A DNA stretch of 64,000 nucleotides from Candidatus Rokuibacteriota bacterium (lineage in GTDB: Bacteria; Methylomirabilota; Methylomirabilia; Rokubacteriales; DASRDR01). Under the pieces are notes generated by a model. It did no database searches and was not told the DNA's origin. It was given only the letters and a program-made list of their open reading frames with translations. The stretch is from contig JBIOVM010000173.1 in the NCBI GenBank assembly GCA_044867785.1, positions 931 to 64,930 on the forward strand, written 5' to 3'. Made by a program: the position numbers and the translations under genes. Of this stretch, positions 1 through 60,422 are shown one piece after another (within the stretch, counting starts at the first letter, position 1; the number at the start of each line of letters is the position of its first letter).

Positions 1-1463
1 GCTTCAAGGAGCGGGGCATCGCCTACACGTTCCTCGGCGCGGAGCTGCCGGGTGACGACCTGCGCGAGAACACGCTCGGCCTCGACGAGATGGTCAAGCT
101 CTACCAGGGCCTCGATGCCTATCTCATCACCAGCCGCTGGGAGGGGGCGCCCAATTCCGTGCTGGAGTGCGCGGCCACCAGGACGTGCGTGGTCAGTACC
201 CGGGTCGGCCAGTCGCCGGACATCCTTCGCCGGGACCAGCTGTTCGACGATGCGGCCGCCGGAGCCGAGCTGCTCCTGCGGGACGTGCGGGAGCGCCACC
301 TCGCGGCGGCCCTCGAGAGTGCCTACGAGCACGTGCAGAAGTTCAACTCCGATGAAGCCATCGCCGGCCGGCTGAAGTGCATCTACGAGCAGGCGCGTCT
401 GAGCGCCTCCCCGAAGCGTGAGCGGCGGGGAACGGCCCCGCGGCCGGCTCGCTGGCGGTCCCTGCTCGGCCGGCGGCCGGTGACGGTGGCGGCTCCGGAC
501 CGTGCGCAGCGCCAGGCGGAGATCACGCGGCGCGTGGCGAGCAAGCGGTCCTTCACCTTCGCCTTGTGGAACGACTTCAAGCCGCCCCCGTACGGTGGCG
601 GCAACCAATTCATGATCGCGCTCGAGGGCGCCATGCGGCGGAAGGGAATGCACACCGTCCGGAACTCCGGGGCCGGCGCGGACGCGCACGTCATCCAGTC
701 CATCTGGTTCGATCACGATCGTCTCCGCCGCGAGCGCGAGCCCGGTTCGATCGTCCTCCACCGGATCGACGGGCCGATCGAGCTGTACCGGGGCGACGAC
801 ACCCGGAGCGACGCCCGGTGCTACGAGCTCAACCGCGAGCTGGCCGACATCACCGTCATGCAGAGCGGCTGGAGCCTGCGCAAGACCTACGACCTGGGCT
901 ACCGACCCTTCCGGCCCGTCCTGATGTGGACCAGCAGCGACCCCCTGATCTTCAATCGCGCGGGCCGCGTGCCGTTCGACCGAAGCCGCAAGGTCCGCCT
1001 GATCTCCACGTCGTGGTCCGACAATCCTCGAAAGGGCCGCGCCACGTACGAATGGATGGACCGGCATCTCGACTGGAGCCGCTACGAGTACACCTTCGTC
1101 GGGCGGGGGGCGGGGGCGTTCGAGCACATCCGCGCCCAGGCGCCCGTGGACTCCGAGACCCTGGCCGGCCTGCTGAAGCAGCACGACATCTATGTCGCCG
1201 CCAGCCAGAGCGATCCGTGCTCCAACGCGCTGGTGGAGGCGCTCTGCTGCGGCCTCCCAGCGGTGTACCGGCACGACGGCGGCCACCCCGAGCTGGTGGA
1301 GTTCGGAGGGATCGGGTTCCGTGCGCCCGAGGAGATCCCCCGGGCTCTGGAACGCCTCGTCGGGTCGTACGAGGCGTTCCAGGGAAGCATCTGGGTGGAC
1401 GGCATCGACGAGCTCGCCCAGAAGTACATCGACTGCGTGCGCCTGGCCGGCGAACTGGATTGA
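1..1463 (+). CDS. Two-module GT-B glycosyltransferase, 5' partial (C-terminal half of a GT1/GT4-like module fused in frame to a second GT1/GT4-like module)
   Basis: Frame 3 is open to the left window edge (FKERGIAYTFLG... precedes the tracked Met). Two copies of the GT-B C-terminal sugar-nucleotide motif are present: SRWEGAPNSVLECAATRTCVVSTRVGQ and SQSDPCSNALVEALCCGLPAVYRHDGGHPELVEFGGIGF. GC3 is high throughout. Confidence 0.7.
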   Translation, partial: FKERGIAYTFLGAELPGDDLRENTLGLDEMVKLYQGLDAYLITSRWEGAPNSVLECAATRTCVVSTRVGQSPDILRRDQLFDDAAAGAELLLRDVRERHLAAALESAYEHVQKFNSDEAIAGRLKCIYEQARLSASPKRERRGTAPRPARWRSLLGRRPVTVAAPDRAQRQAEITRRVASKRSFTFALWNDFKPPPYGGGNQFMIALEGAMRRKGMHTVRNSGAGADAHVIQSIWFDHDRLRREREPGSIVLHRIDGPIELYRGDDTRSDARCYELNRELADITVMQSGWSLRKTYDLGYRPFRPVLMWTSSDPLIFNRAGRVPFDRSRKVRLISTSWSDNPRKGRATYEWMDRHLDWSRYEYTFVGRGAGAFEHIRAQAPVDSETLAGLLKQHDIYVAASQSDPCSNALVEALCCGLPAVYRHDGGHPELVEFGGIGFRAPEEIPRALERLVGSYEAFQGSIWVDGIDELAQKYIDCVRLAGELD

Positions 1464-51706: not shown

Positions 51707-52075
51707 CTACCGGACGACGACCGCGTCGGGCAGGCCTTCGAAGTCAGCGTCGGCGGTGATGAGCGTCGCGCCTGCCGACGCGCCGTCGCGTAGACGAGCG
51801 AGTCCGCCATCGCGAGGCCGTGGGCGAGGGAGAGATCGGCCGCCTCAAGGGCGAGCGACTTCCTCCACCGGGGCGATGGTCGCCCGACGCAGCGCGGCCA
51901 CCGCAGCGACGGCGCGCTCCTCCGACAGGTCGCGGCGGATGACCTTGTAGATCTCGTAGATCTCGATTGCCGACACGAGCAGCGGTTCCGAGCCTTCAAG
52001 GTCGCGCGCAAAGCGGCTGGCGCGCGGTCGGTCGGCGAGGCACTCGATCCAGCCGCTCGAGTCGACCAGGATCAG
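51707..52075 (-). pseudogene. vapC: PIN-domain toxin vapC, disrupted (frame-shifted internal block with in-frame TGA)
   Basis: My minus-strand translation: frame A gives (L)ILVDSSGWIECLADRPRASRFARDLEGSEPLLVSAIEIYEIYKVIRR...APVEEVARP then TGA at 51847-51845. Frame B gives SLALEAADLSLAHGLAMADSLVYATARRQ. Frame A resumes with GATLITADADFEGLPDAVVVR and TAG at 51709-51707. The third PIN acidic residue (MADS) is only readable in frame B. There is no ATG or GTG start; CTG overlaps the vapB TGA. Confidence 0.65.
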
Positions 52076-52281
52076 AGGCGATCTTTCTTCTCGCGGAGGC
52101 CGCGGTCGCTGGCGCCACGGGCCATGCCCCGGAACGCCCGCATCGGCCGGTCGGGGACCAGAAAGATCACGTCCCCCTTCGCCAGGACGGTGAGCTTCAT
52201 CCCGGGCTGGAGACGAAGGCGCTCCCGGGTCGCGCGCGGGAGCACGAGCTGGAACTTGCTGGACAGGGTCACTGTCTCCAT
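52072..52281 (-). CDS. vapB: AbrB/SpoVT-fold antitoxin VapB
   Basis: METVTLSSKFQLVLPRATRERLRLQPGMKLTVLAKGDVIFLVP is a typical SpoVT-AbrB swapped-hairpin domain. It is 69 aa with GAGGGT as SD, immediately upstream of the PIN remnant. Confidence 0.8.
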   Translation of the reverse strand: METVTLSSKFQLVLPRATRERLRLQPGMKLTVLAKGDVIFLVPDRPMRAFRGMARGASDRGLREKKDRL

Positions 52282-52337: not shown

Positions 52338-52954
<617 letters not shown>

Positions 52955-52955
<1 letters not shown>

Positions 52956-54457
52956 CAGGCCCTCCCCCCGGTCCGGCCGGCGCGCTCGATCGCCGCCATG
53001 AGCGCTCGGGCCTTGGCGACGCACTCCTCCTGCTCCCGCTCGGGCACCGAGTCGTAGACGATCCCCGCGCCGGCCTGGACGTAGGCCGTGGCGCCCCGCA
53101 CCAGCACGGTGCGGATCGTGATGGCCGTGTTGAGGGACCCGTCGAAGCCGAAGTACCCGACGCAGCCGGCGTACGGCCCCCGCGCCACGGGCTCGAGGGC
53201 GTCGATGATCTCCATCGCGCGCACCTTCGGCGCCCCGCTGACCGTGCCATGAGGGAAGACCGCCTGGAGCACCTCCCACGGCGACCGTTCGGGCGCCAGC
53301 GCGCCCTCGACGTGGGACACGAGGTGCATCACGTGCGAGTAGCGCTCGATCGTGAGGAGCTCGCTCACCCGGACCGAGCCGTAGCGCGCTACCCGACCTA
53401 CGTCGTTCCGCGTGAGGTCGACGAGCATCACGTGCTCGGCGCGCTCCTTGGGGTCGGCGAGGAGCGCCCGGGCCTGCGCCTCGTCCTGGTCACGATCGGG
53501 GCCGCGCGGGCGCGTGCCCGCGAGCGGGCGCATCTCGATCCGTCCCTCCTCGAGGCGTACCAGGCGCTCCGGCGACGAGCCGACCAGGGTCGCCCCGTCT
53601 CCGGCGTCGAGGAGGAACATGTACGGCGAGGGGTTCACCACGCGGAGCGCGCGGTAGATCGCGAGGGGGTCGAGCCCGGGGACCGGCGTCGCGAAGCGCT
53701 GCGAGAGGATCACCTGGTAGATGTCGCCGGCGCGGATGTGCTCCTGCGCCCGCTCGACGGCCGCGCAGTAGGCCTCCGGGGTCCAGTTCGAGCGCGGCGC
53801 CAGGGCCGTGGCCACCGCGGGAGGCTCGGGCGGCCGGGGGCCCCGCAACCGGTCGAGGACCCGGTCGATCCGCTCGCGCGCCCGCCGCTCGGCGGCCTCG
53901 GCGCCCCCGTCCTCGTCCAGGAACGCGTTCGCCACGATGCGCATCGTGTGGCGGCGGTGATCGAAGGCGACGACCGTGTCCATCAAGGCGAGGCGAAAGA
54001 CGGGGAGGCCGAGGTCGTCGGGTGGCCGGTCCGGGAGCCGCTCCCAGAGGCGCACCGCGTCGTACGCCAAATACCCGAGGAAGCCGCCGGTGAGCGGCGG
54101 CAGCTCCGGATCGCGGGCGCTCCGATAGCGGCCGAGATGGCGCGCGAGCGTCTCGAGGGGGCGCCCGCGCTCGACGAGGGTGCCGTCGGGCCGCCGCACC
54201 CGCACCTCCGCCCCGTCGGATTCGAGAATCAGGCGCGGGTCGCCGCCGAGGACCGAGAAGCGCGCGACCTGCTCCGGCCCCTCGACGCTCTCCAGCAGGA
54301 AGCTCGACGGGAGGTCGCGGAGGCGCAGGTAGGCCGAGATCGGCGTCTCGAGGTCGGCGAGCAGCTCGCGCGACACGGGCACCACGTTGGGCGCGTCCAC
54401 CCGCGCAGCGCGCGTTCCCGGGGCGGAGACCAAGGACGGCTCGGCACGGCTCGACAT
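52955..54457 (-). CDS. trpE: Anthranilate synthase component I
   Basis: LLESVEG and [33 protein letters not shown] are present. The start MSSRAEP at 54457 is preceded by GAAGGAG. Confidence 0.9.
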
Positions 54458-54530
54458 CGACGGCTCCTTCCATTCCGGCCGGCGCTTCGGGCCTGTGGCC
54501 TCGGACGCGGCGGCCTCTTGGGGGCACTCG

Positions 54531-54580
54531 AAAACCAAAAGAGCCGGGGCTCGCGGGACCCACCCGCTCGCCTCGGCTCT
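54531..54580 (-). terminator. Intrinsic terminator (attenuator) between the trp leader peptide and trpE
   Basis: The minus-strand RNA reads AGAGCCGAGGCGAGCGGG-UGGGU-CCCGCGAGCCCCGGCUCU (15 of 18 positions pair by hand) followed directly by UUUGGUUUU. It lies 73 nt upstream of the trpE ATG. Confidence 0.7.
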
Positions 54581-54615
54581 GACTGTGTCCTGTTCCTGCT
54601 ACGTTCGTCCGATCG

Positions 54616-54717
54616 CTACGCGGGTCCGAGTCCCTCCTGGGCGGAGAGGCGCCACCAGCGCCACGCCCACCAGCGCTGACCGGTCGGTCGGGAGGCTCCC
54701 GCGACACCGTGGACCAT
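54616..54717 (-). CDS. trpL: trp operon leader peptide, 33 aa, five Trp in seven consecutive codons
   Basis: My translation is MVHGVAGASRPTGQRWWAWRWWRLSAQEGLGPA followed by TAG. TGG codons lie at 54672-54667, 54663-54661 and 54657-54652. The ORF sits between a promoter and the terminator, upstream of trpE. Confidence 0.7.
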   Translation of the reverse strand: MVHGVAGASRPTGQRWWAWRWWRLSAQEGLGPA

Positions 54718-54727
54718 CGTGCGCAGC

Positions 54728-54756
54728 ACCTTAGTGGCCCACCCTGTCCATGTCAA
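54728..54756 (-). promoter_or_regulatory. Promoter TTGACA-N17-TAAGGT for the trp leader/trpEG transcript
   Basis: On the minus strand, TTGACA lies at 54756-54751, followed by an exact 17-nt spacer and TAAGGT at 54733-54728. The leader ATG is 10 nt downstream. Confidence 0.5.
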
Positions 54757-54823
54757 GGGCACAATCCGGCCACCGAGGCATCACGCCATGCAACGTCGCT
54801 CGGGGCGGCACGGCGCTCGGGCC

Positions 54824-55276
54824 TCATCCCTCGTGCTCCTCCAGGCGCTCCACGTCCGCCAGGTCGCGGAGCCGGCCCGTGGCGCGCTTGTTCCGGATGA
54901 GCGTCTCCCGGTCGAGGAACGGGACCTCCAGGGAGCCGATCCGATGCACCACGCGCGAGCGCCACGCGCTCTCGAAGTCGATCCCGGTCAGCTCGGTGAG
55001 GATGTCGATACGCCGCGGCGGCACCCCGATCTGGAGCACGAGACCGGGGCGCGCCAGATCGCTGGGCGCAGCGCCCAACGTATCGACCGGCGCGCCGAAA
55101 CGTCCGAGCGCCGTCCAGACGCGCTCGGCGTTCGCCGGATCCGCCCGGACCCAGATGTCGAGGTCCGCGGTGGCCCGAGGCACCCCGTGGATGGCGAGCG
55201 CATGGGCCCCGACGACCAGGAAGCGCGCGCCGCTCCACAAGAGGGCCGCGAGCATGTCCTGGAAGTCCTCGTTCAC
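54824..55276 (-). CDS. Pol-beta-fold nucleotidyltransferase-like protein (150 aa)
   Basis: VVGAHALAIHGVPRATADLDIWV is a G-x-x-A...HG...D-x-D nucleotidyltransferase signature. The GTG start overlaps the upstream gene stop (GTGA). Confidence 0.6.
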   Translation of the reverse strand: MNEDFQDMLAALLWSGARFLVVGAHALAIHGVPRATADLDIWVRADPANAERVWTALGRFGAPVDTLGAAPSDLARPGLVLQIGVPPRRIDILTELTGIDFESAWRSRVVHRIGSLEVPFLDRETLIRNKRATGRLRDLADVERLEEHEG

Positions 55277-55524
55277 ACCGGGGTCTCGGGCCTCCGACGG
55301 TCCAGCCGGCAGAGCCGTAGCGGCGTGGCCTCGCGCGCGTAGACCGGGATCGACCGCCCCGAGAGCGCCCAGGCCTCCAGCGTCAGAGGCCAGACCATCG
55401 CCACGCGCGCTTCCGGCGTGCCGTAGTGGCCGGAGCCTGGTCTTGCCCCGAGTGCGGCGAGCTGGACCGGCCAGGCGCCCCGGGCCGCCGCTCTCGCCAT
55501 CCTCGCGGCCTCGCCGCTCGACAT
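55273..55524 (-). CDS. Small partner protein (83 aa) of the nucleotidyltransferase, function unknown
   Basis: MSSGEAARMARAAARGAWPV...TPEARVAMVWPLTLEAWALSG. GC3 is high. ATG 55524 is preferred because TATAAT lies 6 nt upstream. The longer tracked start at 55641 would run across the divergent promoter region. Confidence 0.55.
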   Translation of the reverse strand: MSSGEAARMARAAARGAWPVQLAALGARPGSGHYGTPEARVAMVWPLTLEAWALSGRSIPVYAREATPLRLCRLDRRRPETPV

Positions 55525-55530
55525 GCGGGG

Positions 55531-55536
55531 ATTATA
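55531..55536 (-). promoter_or_regulatory. Perfect TATAAT 6 nt upstream of ATG 55524 (leaderless arrangement)
   Basis: The minus strand reads GGAGTATAATCCCCGCATG. Confidence 0.45.
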
Positions 55537-55581
55537 CTCCGCGGGCGCTCGCACCCGGCCGGTGCAAGGCGGTCCCGGCGC

Positions 55582-55587
55582 TATAAT
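55582..55587 (+). promoter_or_regulatory. Perfect TATAAT 17 nt upstream of the sensor kinase ATG
   Basis: GCGCTATAATGAC. I saw no convincing -35 element. Confidence 0.35.
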
Positions 55588-55604
55588 GACGCGACCTTCT
55601 GGCC

Positions 55605-58600
55605 ATGGCCGAAGCGATGCGTTCGAGCCTCGGCCCGCCATGGCGTCCGAGAGGGGCCGAAACGGCGATCGCCGCCATCGGTCCTGTGCGGAGGCGAGCC
55701 ACGCCGTCCTCCCGACCTGCAGGATCGAGCCTCTGGGGCCGCCTAGCGGCGTGCGTGGCCCTCGCCTGCGGGCCGCTCGCCGTGGCGCTCCTCACGGAAG
55801 GCCGCTGGGCGGGTGAGGACTCGCGCGTCGTAGCCCTGCTCGCCCTCGGCCTGGCGCTCGCCACCGGCGCCGTCCTGCTGCTCCGCGCGGGCGCCGCGCG
55901 AGAGGCCCGCGAGGCCGCGGCGCCGGAGCGAGCCCTCCGCCAGGCTCGGGACCAGCAGGCCGCGACCGCGGAGATCCTGGCCGCCATGGCGGCTTCGCCT
56001 CCTGACCTCCAGCGCGTCCTCGACACGATCGCGCGGAACGCCGCGCGTGTCTGCGACGGCCTCTACGCGGTGGTCCTCCGCGTCGCCGGCGCCGAGATCC
56101 GGCTGGCGGCGCATCATGGCCTGTCGCCTGCACGACTGGACGCCCTCAATCAGCGGTATCCCAGACGCCTGGACGATGGAAGCTTGGTGGCTCGCGCGAT
56201 TCGCGACGCCTCCGTGGTCCACTGCCCGGACATCCCGCATGATCCCCGTGTTCCATCCTGGCTTCGCGAGCTCGCGCAGGCCGAGGGGTTCCGCAGCCTC
56301 GTCGTGGTTCCGATGGTCGGGGATGGTCGCACCATCGGCACCCTCAACGTGTCCCGCCCTGAGGGTGCCTTCACGGAGCGCCAGATCCAGTTCCTCCGGA
56401 TCTTCGCCGACCAGGCGGTGATCGCGATCGAGAACGTGCGGCTCTTCCAGGAGCTCCAGGCGCGGAACCGGGAGCTGACCGAATCCTTGGAGCAACAGAC
56501 GGCGACGGCCGAGATCCTGGGGGTGATCAGCCGCTCACCGACAGACACGCAGCCCGTGTTCGATGGCATCGTGGCGAGCGCGGTCCGCCTCTGCGACGCG
56601 CGGATCGGTGCCATCTATCGCATCGAGAACGACGTCATCGACGTCGTCGCCACTGCGGATCACAGTGACGAGGCGCACCGGACGCACGTGACGGCCTACC
56701 CAAGGCCTTTGTCGGACCTTCAGCTGCCGTTCCAGCGGGCCATCTCGACCGCCGCACCGGTCCACGTGGCGGACATAGACGGCGACTTCGAGTTTTCCGA
56801 TACCTTCAAAGAACGCGCGCGGACGCTCGGATATCGGAGTGCCTTGATTGTACCGATGCGCCGAGAGGGCCGGGTGATCGGACTCATCAATGTCGGCCGA
56901 ATTGGCGACGGAGGAGTCTCCAGGCCCTTCTCCGAGCGCGAGATCGGCCTCCTGCAGGTCTTTGCCGGCCAGGCGGTGATCGCTATCGAGAACGTGCGTC
57001 TGTTCCGGGAGCTCGAGGCGAGGAACCGCGAGCTGACGGAGTCGCTCGAGCAGCAGACCGCGACCGGGGCGATTCTCCGGGTCATCAGCGGCTCGCCTAC
57101 CCACATCCAGCCCGTGCTCGATGCGGTGGCCGAGAGCGCGACGCGGCTGTGCGAGGCCAGGGACGTCACGATCGCCCTGGTCGACCAGCATGTGCTGAGA
57201 GTCGTGGCGTCTCATGGCCCGCTGGCGCGCTGGTGGCCTGACGAGGGAATCCCCATCGGCCGAGGATCCGTCACCGGGCGCGCCGTCGTAGAGCGACGGA
57301 CCATCCACATCCACGACCTGGCGTCCGAATCGGAGCTGGAATACCCGGAGGGGAAGGTCTACCAGCGTCAAGGCGGACATCGGACGAACATGGCGGTTCC
57401 GCTCCTCAGAGAGGGAGTCGCGATTGGCGTCATTGCGGTTCGACGGGAAGAGGTCCGGCCCTTCACGAATCGCCAAGTCGGGCTTCTGGAAACGTTCGCC
57501 GACCAGGCGGTCATCGCGATCGAAAACGTGCGGCTATTCCAGGAGCTCGAGGCGCGGAACCGGGACCTGACGGAATCGCTCGAGCAGCAGACGGCGACGG
57601 CCGAGATCCTGGGCGTGATCAGCCGCTCGCCCACGGACCTCGACCCGGTCCTGGACGCGGTCGCCCGGAATGCGTCCCGGTTATGCGGGGCGGCCAACGT
57701 CTCGCTCTATCGCGTCGAAGGCAGCCTGATGCACAAGGTCGCCGAGCAGGGCTTGGCGCTGACGACGCTTGACGTGGGAGAGACGCGGGCCATCACCCGC
57801 ACGACCATAAGCGGCCGGGTCATCACCGACCGGGCGACGATCCACGTGCCCGACTACCAGTCCGCGGATATGGCTCGGGAGTATCCGGACGTGCGGCGCG
57901 ACACGGGCATCCGGACCACGATCGGCATTCCGCTTCTCCGAGAAGGGGCCGCCATCGGTGCCTTCACCGCGTACCGGACCGAATCCCGGCCGTTCTCGCA
58001 GCGCGAGATCGCGTTGCTCCAGACCTTCGCCGACCAGGCGGTGATCGCGATCGAGAACGTCCGGCTCTTCCGGGAGCTCCAGGCGCGGAACCGCGAGCTG
58101 ACGGAGGCGCTCGAGCAGCAGACGGCGACGAGCGAGATCCTACAGGTGATCTCCAGCTCTCCGACCGGTGTCGAGCCGGTGTTCGAAGCGATCGCCCGGT
58201 CCGCGACCGCCCTGTGCGAGGCGGACCTGTCCGGCCTCTACACGTTCGACGGGGAGCTGATCCACCTCGAGGCGAGCCATGGCCGGACGCCCGAAGAGAT
58301 CGACGCTGTCCGCCGTGCGTTCCCGCAGCGTCCCGGCCGCGGCAGCGTGACGGCGCGGGCGATTCTCGAAGCCGCCGCTGTCCAGGTTCCCGACCACAGT
58401 CAGGACCCAGAGGTTGCCGACGCGCTCCGGACGTACCGCACCGTGCTCGCCGTCCCGATGACCCGGGATGGCCGGCCGATCGGTGCCATCTCGGTGGCTC
58501 GGCGCGTCGTCCGGCCCTTCACCGACAAGCAGATCGCGCTGCTGAAGATCTTCGCCGACCAAGCCGTGATCGCCATCGACAACGTCCGGCTCTTCACGGA

Positions 58601-60422
58601 GCTCGAGGTGCGCAACCGCGAGCTGACGGAATCGCTCGAGCAGCAGACCGCGACCGCAGAGATCCTCCACGTCATTTCCCGCTCGCCGACCGACGTCCAG
58701 CCGGTCTTCGACTCCATTCTCGATCGGGCGATCCGGCTCGCGGACGGGCTGTTCGGCGCGGCTTTCTCCTTCGACGGCGAGCTCGTTCACCTCGTCGCGC
58801 ACCATGGTCTCTCTGACGAAGCCCTGGCACTCAACCGGCGCGTCTACCCGATGGCGCCGGGCCCGGGGCAGCTGACGGCCCTAGCTGTGCTCGAGAAGCG
58901 GGTAGTCCATCTCCGGGACGTGGACACGGACACGGACGTGCCCGAAATGACCCGACAGCTGGGTCGAGTGATCGGGTTTCGGTCTCTTTTGGCGGTTCCC
59001 ATGCTCCGTGAGGACCGCGCGGTGGGGGTGCTGACGATCACTCGGGCCGCCGGCGAATTTTCGCCGAGGCACATCGAGCTCGTGAAGACCTTCGCGGACC
59101 AGGCGGTGATCGCGATCGAGAACGTGCGCCTCTTCCAGGAGCTCGAGGCGCGAACTCGGGAGCTGGCGCGGTCGGTGGAGGAGCTCCAGGCACTCAGCGA
59201 GGTCGGGCGGGCGGTCAGCTCGACGCTCGACCTGCCCACGGTGCTCGCCACCATCGTGACGCGAGCTGTCCAGCTGTCCGGCACGAGCAGCGGCGTCCTC
59301 TACGAGTACGACGAAGCGACCCAGACCTTTCACCTGCAGGCCAGCCACCAGACCGAGACCGAGGTGGTCGAGGCCCTGCGGGCGTCACCGATCCAGCTCG
59401 GGGAGGGGGCGACCGGGCGGGCCGTCGTTCGGCGAGGGCCGGTGGAGGTCGTCGACCTCGTCGAGGATCAGCAGTTCAAGCCCGTTCTGAGGACGATCCT
59501 GACGCGGCTGGGCTATCGCTCCATCCTGAGCATTCCGCTTCTGCTCGAGCAGCGGATCCTCGGCGCGCTGACCGTGTCGCGGCGTGAGCCCGGGAGCTTC
59601 CCGCCGGAGACGGTGAGCTTGCTCCAGACTTTCGCGACCCAGTCCGCGCTCGCCATCCAGAACGCCCGCCTGTTCCGGGAGATCGAGGCGAAGAGCCGGG
59701 AGCTCGAGGTGGCGAGCCGCCACAAGAGCCAGTTCCTCGCCAACATGAGCCACGAGCTGCGCACGCCCCTCAACGCGATCCTCGGCTATTCGGAGCTCAT
59801 GGTGGATGGGATCTACGGCGACCTGCCCACGAAGGCCGCGGATGTCATGGCGCGGATCGACCGGAGCGGCAAGCACCTCCTCGGCCTGATCAACGACGTC
59901 CTGGACCTGTCGAAGATCGAGGCCGGCCAGCTCGAGCTCGGCCTCGCCGACTACTCGCTGGCCGAGGTCGTGCACGCCGTGGTCACCCAGGTGGAGTCCC
60001 TGGCGGCGGAGAAAGGCCTCATCCTCCAGGCGACCGTCGCCCCGGACCTGCCCGCGGGGCGAGGCGACGAGCGGCGGCTGGCCCAGGTGCTGCTGAACCT
60101 CGTCGGCAACGCCCTCAAGTTCACCGAGGTGGGATCGGTCCGCATCGTCGCCCACCGGGATGACGACACCTTCGTCGTGTCCGTCGCCGACAGCGGGCCC
60201 GGGATCGCGGAGGCGGACCGGCAGCGCATCTTCGAGGAGTTCCAGCAGGCCGACAGCTCGAGCACCCGGAAGAAGGGCGGGACCGGGCTCGGGCTCTCGA
60301 TTGCCAAGCGCATCATCGAGCTCCACGGCGGCCGGATCTGGGTCGAGTCGACGGTGGGACGCGGATCGGTCTTCAGCTTCCGGGTGCCCGTGCGCGTCGA
60401 GCGCCAGGCCGCGCGAGCCTGA
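55605..60422 (+). CDS. Membrane-anchored sensor histidine kinase with seven tandem GAF modules
   Basis: Two N-terminal hydrophobic helices are followed by seven repeats, each ending in the helix [39 protein letters not shown]. Then come the H-box [15 protein letters not shown], N-box [10 protein letters not shown], G1 DSGPGI and G2 [13 protein letters not shown]. Confidence 0.9.
   Translation: [1605 protein letters not shown]
55960..59700 (+). repeat. Intragenic tandem repeat: seven GAF-plus-linker modules with a period of about 525-560 nt
   Basis: The conserved linker codon (D/G/T of F-A-D-Q) recurs at 56409, 56967, 57501, 58032, 58557, 59097 and 59637. The linker blocks of about 130 nt are clearly similar at DNA level (for example, compare 56409-56540 with 57501-57640). 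Confidence 0.85.

Follow-up and report, generated by a model that had tools for sequence, protein, structure and literature searches.

A probable leader-peptide attenuator ahead of trpE-trpG in a Candidatus Rokuibacteriota bacterium

We analyzed a 64,000-nt stretch of DNA from an uncultured soil Candidatus Rokuibacteriota bacterium (contig JBIOVM010000173.1, GenBank assembly GCA_044867785.1; ~72% GC; hereafter the window), concentrating on the region upstream of the anthranilate synthase genes trpE and trpG. This region probably holds a ribosome-mediated, leader-peptide transcription attenuator that would tie the expression of trpE-trpG to the availability of charged tRNA-Trp. On the minus strand, a promoter, a short open reading frame (ORF) with a run of tryptophan codons, a UAG stop, a terminator hairpin, and trpE-trpG follow one another in this order, and their linkage with trpEG is conserved. 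An original prediction made from the letters of this stretch had proposed a trpL-type ribosome-mediated Trp attenuator, and it is supported by the fact that promoter, Trp-rich ORF, terminator, and trpEG travel together in the 16 leaders that we compared. The class assignment is well supported, and the exact antiterminator given below is the best available inference. See Table 1 for the coordinates of all elements.

The conserved leader unit

Relatives of the window were collected through the DNA around TrpE homologues and through a scan of metagenomes with a DNA pattern taken from the terminator only. The closest TrpE homologues, at 93-71% identity, are all metagenomic and every one is named anthranilate synthase; where a taxon name is given, it is Methylomirabilota or Candidatus Rokubacteria. 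Besides the leader of the window, we obtained 15 further non-identical leaders (n = 16), each located before a TrpE homologue (about 69-93% identity) and with differing upstream neighbor genes. The terminator-pattern scan gave 129 matches, which are mostly chance matches in GC-rich DNA and were filtered by T-rich tail, trpE, and Trp-rich ORF. The 21 matches with a T-rich tail are the trpE-linked ones, and a Trp-rich ORF was present in all T-tailed matches whose stored upstream sequence reached it, which was the case at every locus but the truncated L088 and L096. Among the ~100 other pattern matches, no downstream trpE match and no Trp-rich ORF was found. A scan of genome contigs with TrpE was of no use for conservation, as it gave, among the matches listed, only homologues of <=54% identity from other phyla.

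The layout common to all 16 leaders is TTGACA-17/18-TAnnGT-9..11-ATG, in-frame ORF, UAG, hairpin with T-rich tail, and trpE-trpG, and the distance from terminator to trpE-trpG in the relatives ranges from 27 to about 200 nt. The gene upstream of the unit varies: it can be a 150-amino acid ORF, DAO, or Aldedh, or, on the opposite strand, a methyltransferase or a GAF kinase. Therefore, the unit belongs to trpE and not to the upstream gene. TrpE homologues of ~61% identity (L089 and L213) lie inside an aroF (DAHP synthase)-tyrA (prephenate dehydrogenase)-trpE-trpG-trpD-trpC cluster and have no leader, with just 9-10 nt before trpE; the attenuator is thus associated with trpEG split off from such a cluster.

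The leader ORF, its ATG, and its five TGG codons are located where the original prediction had placed them. Across all six frames, the window has a single place with at least five in-frame TGG within seven codons, and none of 100 second-order Markov simulations produced one, in line with the earlier view that such a density of Trp is unlikely to be chance. Two other places in the window have at least four TGG, in short open frames of 16 and 61 codons and with no comparable context. In all 16 leaders the in-frame ORF spans 27-38 codons, of which 3-6 encode Trp, and ends at a UAG. Sequence and length both vary in the N-terminal half of the peptide, and the first Trp is preceded by 7 to 18 codons; although at least seven N-terminal lengths are represented, the Trp codons never leave the frame set by the fixed ATG and UAG. 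The codons interspersed in the Trp run vary synonymously among relatives (GCG/GCA, TCG/TCA). Conservation of the Trp run and hairpin upstream of related trpE genes, proposed earlier as a check, was thus found in the 16 leaders.

Other features of the leader ORF point to constraint at the RNA level. The third position of the codon preceding the last sense codon is C in 16/16 leaders, and an internal GGAGGG resembling a Shine-Dalgarno (SD) sequence lies 6-13 nt before the stop. L086 and L167 carry this motif in a reading frame other than that of the window, so it is constrained as RNA and not as peptide. Every one of the 16 leaders ends its ORF with UAG. Among the 36 long ORFs of the window with high third-position GC, the stops are TGA (20), TAG (16), and TAA (0), a distribution unusually rich in UAG.

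Upstream of the ORF, the predicted TTGACA-N17-TAAGGT promoter was borne out. The -10 element takes the forms TAAGGT, TAACGT, TACTGT, TATTGT, or TACCGT among the 16 leaders, with a spacer of 17-18 nt, and no conservation was seen across these leaders upstream of the -35 element. A simple consensus scanner, run on the window, called neither promoter nor terminator, because TAAGGT matches TATAAT at only 3/6 positions and the terminator stem is interrupted. The gap between the -10 element and the ATG is 10 nt in the window and 9-11 nt in 16/16 leaders, and none of the 16 has an SD before the leader ATG. The constancy of this gap, the missing SD, and a conserved CA just before the ATG support a near-leaderless leader peptide. 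From the gap and the CA, transcription likely starts at A 54720, which would give a 5' untranslated region of ~3 nt without an SD. Such starts have been reported before: the trpE(G) attenuator RNA of Sinorhizobium meliloti begins at the trpL ATG and is leaderless (PMC7298713), the trpEGD leader peptide of Deinococcus deserti begins 1 nt after the mapped transcription start site (PMC4007540), and mycobacterial Cys-sensing upstream ORFs are likewise leaderless (10.1101/834739). The near-leaderless start was part of the original prediction and stands, but its description there as less usual does not, since a start of this kind is documented for trp attenuators in S. meliloti trpL (PMC7298713) and D. 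deserti trpEGD (PMC4007540).

The hairpin begins 35 nt past the leader stop and contains 15 bp in three blocks (7 + 3 + 5), set apart by one 1x1 mismatch and one GA/GA internal loop; its predicted energy is -30.6 kcal/mol. The hairpin and following U-tract had been recognized earlier at these positions; its length, given then as 18 bp, came to 15 pairs on folding. Across the 16 leaders the predicted energy is -23 to -34 kcal/mol, the terminator pairs are formed in 96.7% of the cells of the alignment, and the unpaired nucleotides of the terminator are invariant. T-rich tails follow the hairpin in the relatives, with weaker ones in L086 and L167. Together, hairpin and U-tract are predicted to be an intrinsic terminator. 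The SD and start codon of trpE, followed by trpG, were also predicted correctly, and both genes are confirmed by Pfam. The GATase domain (5.2e-58) matches the C-terminal ~200 residues of ORF 52338-53279, a class-I glutamine amidotransferase, and in relatives trpG begins at the trpE stop. Past trpG there is a MazE-like ORF, beyond which yajQ, lolA, and ftsK are convergent; therefore, the operon holds only the two anthranilate synthase genes.

Table 1. Elements of the trpE-trpG leader unit in the window; MFE, minimum free energy structure
Feature	Position	Strand	Remarks
-35 hexamer TTGACA	54751..54756	-	Read in sequence; 15/16 leaders, TTGACG in L112
-10 hexamer TAAGGT (TAnnGT type)	54728..54733	-	17 nt after -35
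Conserved CA dinucleotide, predicted transcription start A 54720	54720..54721	-	CA 2-3 nt before ATG in 16/16
Leader ORF (trpL-like), 33 codons + UAG	54616..54717	-	ATG 54717-54715 opens MVHGVAGASRPTGQRWWAWRWWRLSAQEGLGPA; TAG 54618-54616
Regulatory Trp run W-W-A-W-R-W-W, five TGG; proposed segment 1	54652..54672	-	Read in sequence
SD-like GGAGGG inside leader ORF	54632..54637	-	13 nt before stop; GGAGG in 12/16, G-rich variant in the rest
Segment 2, ACCCGCG-UAG-CGAUCGG across stop codon; proposed antiterminator 5' strand	54609..54625	-	CCCGC 54624-54620
Terminator 5' arm AGAGCCGAGGCGAGCGGG (segment 3)	54563..54580	-	GCGGG 54567-54563 common to terminator and candidate antiterminator
Terminator loop UGGGU	54558-54562	-	
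Terminator 3' arm CCCGCGAGCCCCGGCUCU (segment 4)	54540..54557	-	Hairpin in MFE of 16/16 leaders
U-tract UUUGGUUUU (TTTGGTTTT)	54531..54539	-	Directly after hairpin
Spacer between terminator and SD	54471..54530	-	Holds conserved GC-rich element of ~50 nt
SD GAAGGAG of trpE	54464..54470	-	AAGGAGCCGTCGATG kept in close relatives
trpE, anthranilate synthase component I, 500 amino acids	52955..54457	-	Pfam Chorismate_bind 1.1e-94, Anth_synt_I_N 9.3e-38
trpG, glutamine amidotransferase component II	52338..52958	-	Predicted start, overlaps trpE stop

Candidate antiterminator and alternative readings

The original prediction could not define an antiterminator by eye. We now have a positionally conserved candidate, a helix between CCCGC and GCGGG that shares GCGGG with the terminator. 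When RNAalifold was applied to the transcript before the 3' arm, its sole consensus helix joined CCCGC (-6 to -2 from the UAG) to the GCGGG at the top of the 5' arm. These segments can pair in 97.5% of alignment cells, versus 22-56% when the partner is slid. CCCGC is the most probable partner of GCGGG in 9/16 leaders folded up to before the 3' arm, and the pairing probability of GCGGG drops in silico when a ribosome footprint masks the stop region. The helix also closes the minimum free energy structure (MFE) of the segment from stop to arm in 14/16 leaders (-11.6 to -27.3 kcal/mol). For the leader of the window the helix can be drawn out to 12 pairs, ACCCGC / GC / UCGG with CCGA / GC / GCGGGU, with a duplex energy of -20.9 kcal/mol. 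The stop-spanning segment resembles the 3' arm of the terminator (CCCGCGUAGC versus CCCGCGAGCC), which is the usual design of an antiterminator strand. CCCGC begins 27 nt after the end of the last Trp codon in the window and abuts the stop, so a ribosome stalled on the Trp run would leave it free and a ribosome at the UAG would cover it. RNAalifold also pairs GUGG of the last two Trp codons weakly with CCGC of segment 2, a possible 1:2 pairing.

From these elements we propose the following mechanism. A constitutive sigma-70-type promoter would start the transcript ~3 nt before the AUG, so the leader peptide would be translated from an essentially leaderless mRNA. When Trp is plentiful, the ribosome would pass the five Trp codons and reach the UAG, where its footprint would cover segment 2. 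With segment 2 masked, the GC-rich 3:4 hairpin and the U-tract would end transcription, giving a predicted RNA of ~185 nt that ends 75-80 nt short of trpE. When Trp is scarce, the ribosome would stall on the Trp run, at least 27 nt upstream of segment 2, leaving segment 2 free to pair with the terminator 5' arm through CCCGC:GCGGG and a few flanking pairs. This antiterminator would block the terminator, and RNA polymerase would read into trpEG.

Several observations weigh against this model. The 16 leaders are related (TrpE 69-99% identical) and not independent, and for 8/16 the search pattern itself specified part of the terminator sequence. Covariation in the terminator amounts to 1 compensatory pair, equalled by most shuffles, and we found none for CCCGC:GCGGG in the 16 leaders. 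In RNA of 72% GC, pairing with the 5' arm at -14 to -23 kcal/mol is open to many leader windows; the stop region is the best 5'-arm partner in only 6/16 leaders, the minimum of the meta-profile is shallow (mean -15.6 kcal/mol), and L087 has no CCCGC element. The full-length MFE keeps the terminator in every leader, with or without a ribosome mask; therefore, any switch must be kinetic, as in classical cases. In 15/16 MFEs the stop region pairs back onto the Trp run, but this 1:2 hairpin is no stabler than dinucleotide shuffles (z -2.6 to +2.2), so we did not count it as evidence. The folding check suggested originally thus gave a candidate 2:3 helix in the fold before the 3' arm, together with a weak 1:2 helix and a full-length MFE that is always the terminator. 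Antiterminator and terminator are backed by conserved complementarity among related sequences and not by covariation or excess stability. Because significant covariation is absent and the 1:2 hairpin is no stabler than shuffles, the switching mechanism is something that we infer, as are the transcription start, the identity of the antiterminator, the possible hairpin formed by the Trp codons with segment 2, and the response to Trp.

An attenuator of the same class may use another antiterminator, which we consider unlikely. In this alternative the CGCCUC that follows the Trp run pairs with GAGGCG in the lower 5' arm, a complementarity already pointed out in the original prediction, or a two-helix structure forms with GGAGGGAC also pairing with the top of the 3' arm. 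The duplex meta-profile does dip a second time, between -22 and -26 nt from the stop, where 8/16 leaders reach -15 kcal/mol or lower, and the post-Trp segment is the best partner in L108 and L181. However, that segment has no positional or sequence conservation in distant members, a ribosome stalled on the last Trp codons would cover it, and RNAalifold did not recover it. Some leaders also show a likeness between the segment from GGAGGG to the stop and the apical half of the terminator (p < 0.05 by local alignment in 5/16), which would fit such an arrangement, but the likeness is weak (z 0-3), and we set aside the idea that this segment is a degenerate copy of the apex. The invariant unpaired nucleotides of the terminator, the GGAGGG kept in two reading frames at 6-13 nt before an ever-present UAG, and the resemblance between stop region and apex are more than a plain hairpin needs. 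These extra features could reflect further alternative pairings. By analogy with rnTrpL/peTrpL of S. meliloti, the ~185-nt RNA and/or the 33-amino acid peptide might instead act in trans on other trp operons, or the internal SD might hold the ribosome on the antiterminator strand in a form of termination sensing; we regard either role as speculative and quite unlikely.

The Trp run might also have no sensing function, with the hairpin serving as a constitutive or leaky terminator or an insulator and the ORF being a chance frame or a small protein with a function of its own. A frame of 33 codons is easily open at 72% GC, the TGG run read in another frame is ordinary Gly/Ala/Arg-rich sequence, the missing covariation in both helices would fit, and the leader peptide of S. 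meliloti is known to act in trans (PMC7298713). Nevertheless, we find this very improbable, as TGG codons are kept in one frame between fixed ATG and UAG through at least seven N-terminal lengths, their density is unique in the window, the unit always stands before trpE whatever lies upstream, and, where a strong terminator separates a conserved promoter from an essential biosynthetic gene, some means of bypass is required. Least probable of all, to the point of being hardly credible, is control of the terminator by a trans factor, be it a TRAP-like protein, uncharged tRNA-Trp (T-box), or a Trp riboswitch. Firmicutes trp operons use TRAP or T-boxes, and the striking conservation of the unpaired terminator nucleotides would fit such control. 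A TRAP site would be recognized by 9-11 spaced (G/U)AG triplets, but by inspection the leader has two UAG triplets only and no spaced series. No Rfam family, T-box included, matched at E <= 10, and a trans factor would leave the Trp run and the conserved start and stop unexplained; we therefore rejected the TRAP, T-box, and riboswitch readings on the Rfam result and the lack of a regular (G/U)AG series.

Comparison with known leaders and distribution

The element would work like the classical trpL attenuators, and its organization is closest to trpL-trpE(G) of S. meliloti, with a leader predicted to be leaderless, a constitutive-type promoter, and control of anthranilate synthase alone. In S. 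meliloti, the trpL transcript starts at the ATG from a constitutive promoter (PMC7298713), the leader is found only before the anthranilate synthase gene, with the other trp genes elsewhere and without a leader, and the released attenuator RNA has a function in trans (PMC6614838). The S. meliloti leader (rnTrpL/peTrpL) likewise combines a Trp-codon leader ORF with an intrinsic terminator before the anthranilate synthase gene only, and its mutually exclusive stem-loops (SL1, antiterminator SL2, and terminator SL3) correspond to the pairings proposed here. The two differ in size, with a 14-amino acid peptide and a 110-nt RNA in S. meliloti versus 33 amino acids with five Trp and a predicted ~185-nt RNA here; trpE and trpG are separate here and fused in S. 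meliloti. There is no detectable homology in sequence or structure (no Rfam match). An Rfam cmscan of 53500-55500 at E <= 10 gave only chance matches to mir-9223 and p27_CRE, with no leader family and no RF00513 Trp_leader.

The Escherichia coli trpL leader (RF00513) follows the logic proposed here, with Trp codons in a short ORF, a stop beside segment 2, alternative 1:2/2:3/3:4 pairings, and a terminator before trpE. In the present leader the 1:2 helix is weak, and folding of the RNA without a ribosome often predicts the antiterminator. In E. coli the leader carries an SD and encodes a 14-amino acid peptide with two Trp; it controls the entire trpEDCBA operon and acts together with TrpR repression. 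In high-GC hosts, Streptomyces venezuelae trpEG and Corynebacterium glutamicum trpL have a Trp-codon leader ORF and a terminator before the anthranilate synthase genes; their leader peptides are shorter and have three tandem Trp. The trpEGD operon of D. deserti is similar in having a leader peptide upstream of trpE-trpG(-D) and a transcript starting at or 1 nt before the start codon (PMC4007540). It belongs to another phylum, its sequences are unrelated, and its transcription start was mapped, whereas that of the present leader is predicted.

Our literature search gave no paper that deals with leader peptides of Methylomirabilota or Rokubacteria. Leader-peptide attenuation of Trp synthesis would thus be extended to Methylomirabilota/Candidatus Rokubacteria, where the carriers of the leader are known here from metagenomes only. 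The concept of attenuation is unchanged by this; the mechanism is a known one in a lineage for which the search gave no earlier described case. In these organisms only the first committed step would be controlled by the attenuator, and the combination of promoter, leaderless Trp-rich ORF, UAG, and terminator can serve as an annotation rule for trpEG in such genomes.

Among the matches listed in a survey of distant TrpE loci, the region before trpE had three or more in-frame TGG within ten codons at 23/82 loci. Trp-rich short ORFs lie within 500 nt upstream of trpE in L005, L041, L020, L027, L033, L036, L038, and L069, all from other phyla. Examples are ...NLNNWWWWNLTGR (Smithella), ...ALNGWWWWALSGR (Syntrophales), ...CAGWWRWHLDAP (Binataceae / delta-proteobacterial metagenome-assembled genome), and ...DWFWLWCAFLW (Glassbacteria metagenome-assembled genome). 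They are unrelated in sequence to the leader of the window, and several look like leader peptides, as candidates judged from the ORFs alone. Since Trp-rich ORFs precede trpE in several other phyla, a Trp-rich leader before trpE seems widespread, and these candidates support a repeated origin of Trp-codon leaders before anthranilate synthase.

Spacer element and neighboring genes

The spacer between terminator and trpE contains a GC-rich element of ~50 nt, GGAGGCCGCYGCGTCCCGAGGGCCnnAGGCCCGAGGCGCGCCGGCCGAG, at 54475-54519 (minus strand). It is kept in the close relatives L081 (2920-3000) and L181 (11775-11870) and is tandemly duplicated in L112 (4748-4897). More distant relatives lack it and have spacers of 27-50 nt. 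The element pairs partly with the SD region in the MFE of the window. We rejected the possibility that it is a dispersed repeat, as no further copy was found within the window.

Two small ORFs upstream of the leader, at 54824-55276 (150 amino acids) and 55273-55641 (122 amino acids), both on the minus strand, have no Pfam match; the first is kept at the same position in two relatives. They separate the trpEG unit from a 1605-amino acid histidine kinase at 55605-60422 on the plus strand, upstream of the unit, which has seven GAF domains and C-terminal HisKA and HATPase_c domains. A similar kinase neighbors trpE in two relatives.

Directly after trpG, the MazE-antitoxin-like ORF (52072-52281, minus strand, 69 amino acids) has a Pfam E value of 2.5e-5, just under the cut-off, and the contig of one relative has PIN-MazE-PIN at the corresponding place. 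In another relative (L082, 5132-5842), a 236-amino acid ORF directly follows trpG in the same direction and matches tRNA-synt_1b, the family of tryptophanyl- and tyrosyl-tRNA synthetases (TrpRS/TyrRS class). This ORF is shorter than a full synthetase and could be a Trp-tRNA synthetase paralogue or fragment that is co-transcribed with trpEG.

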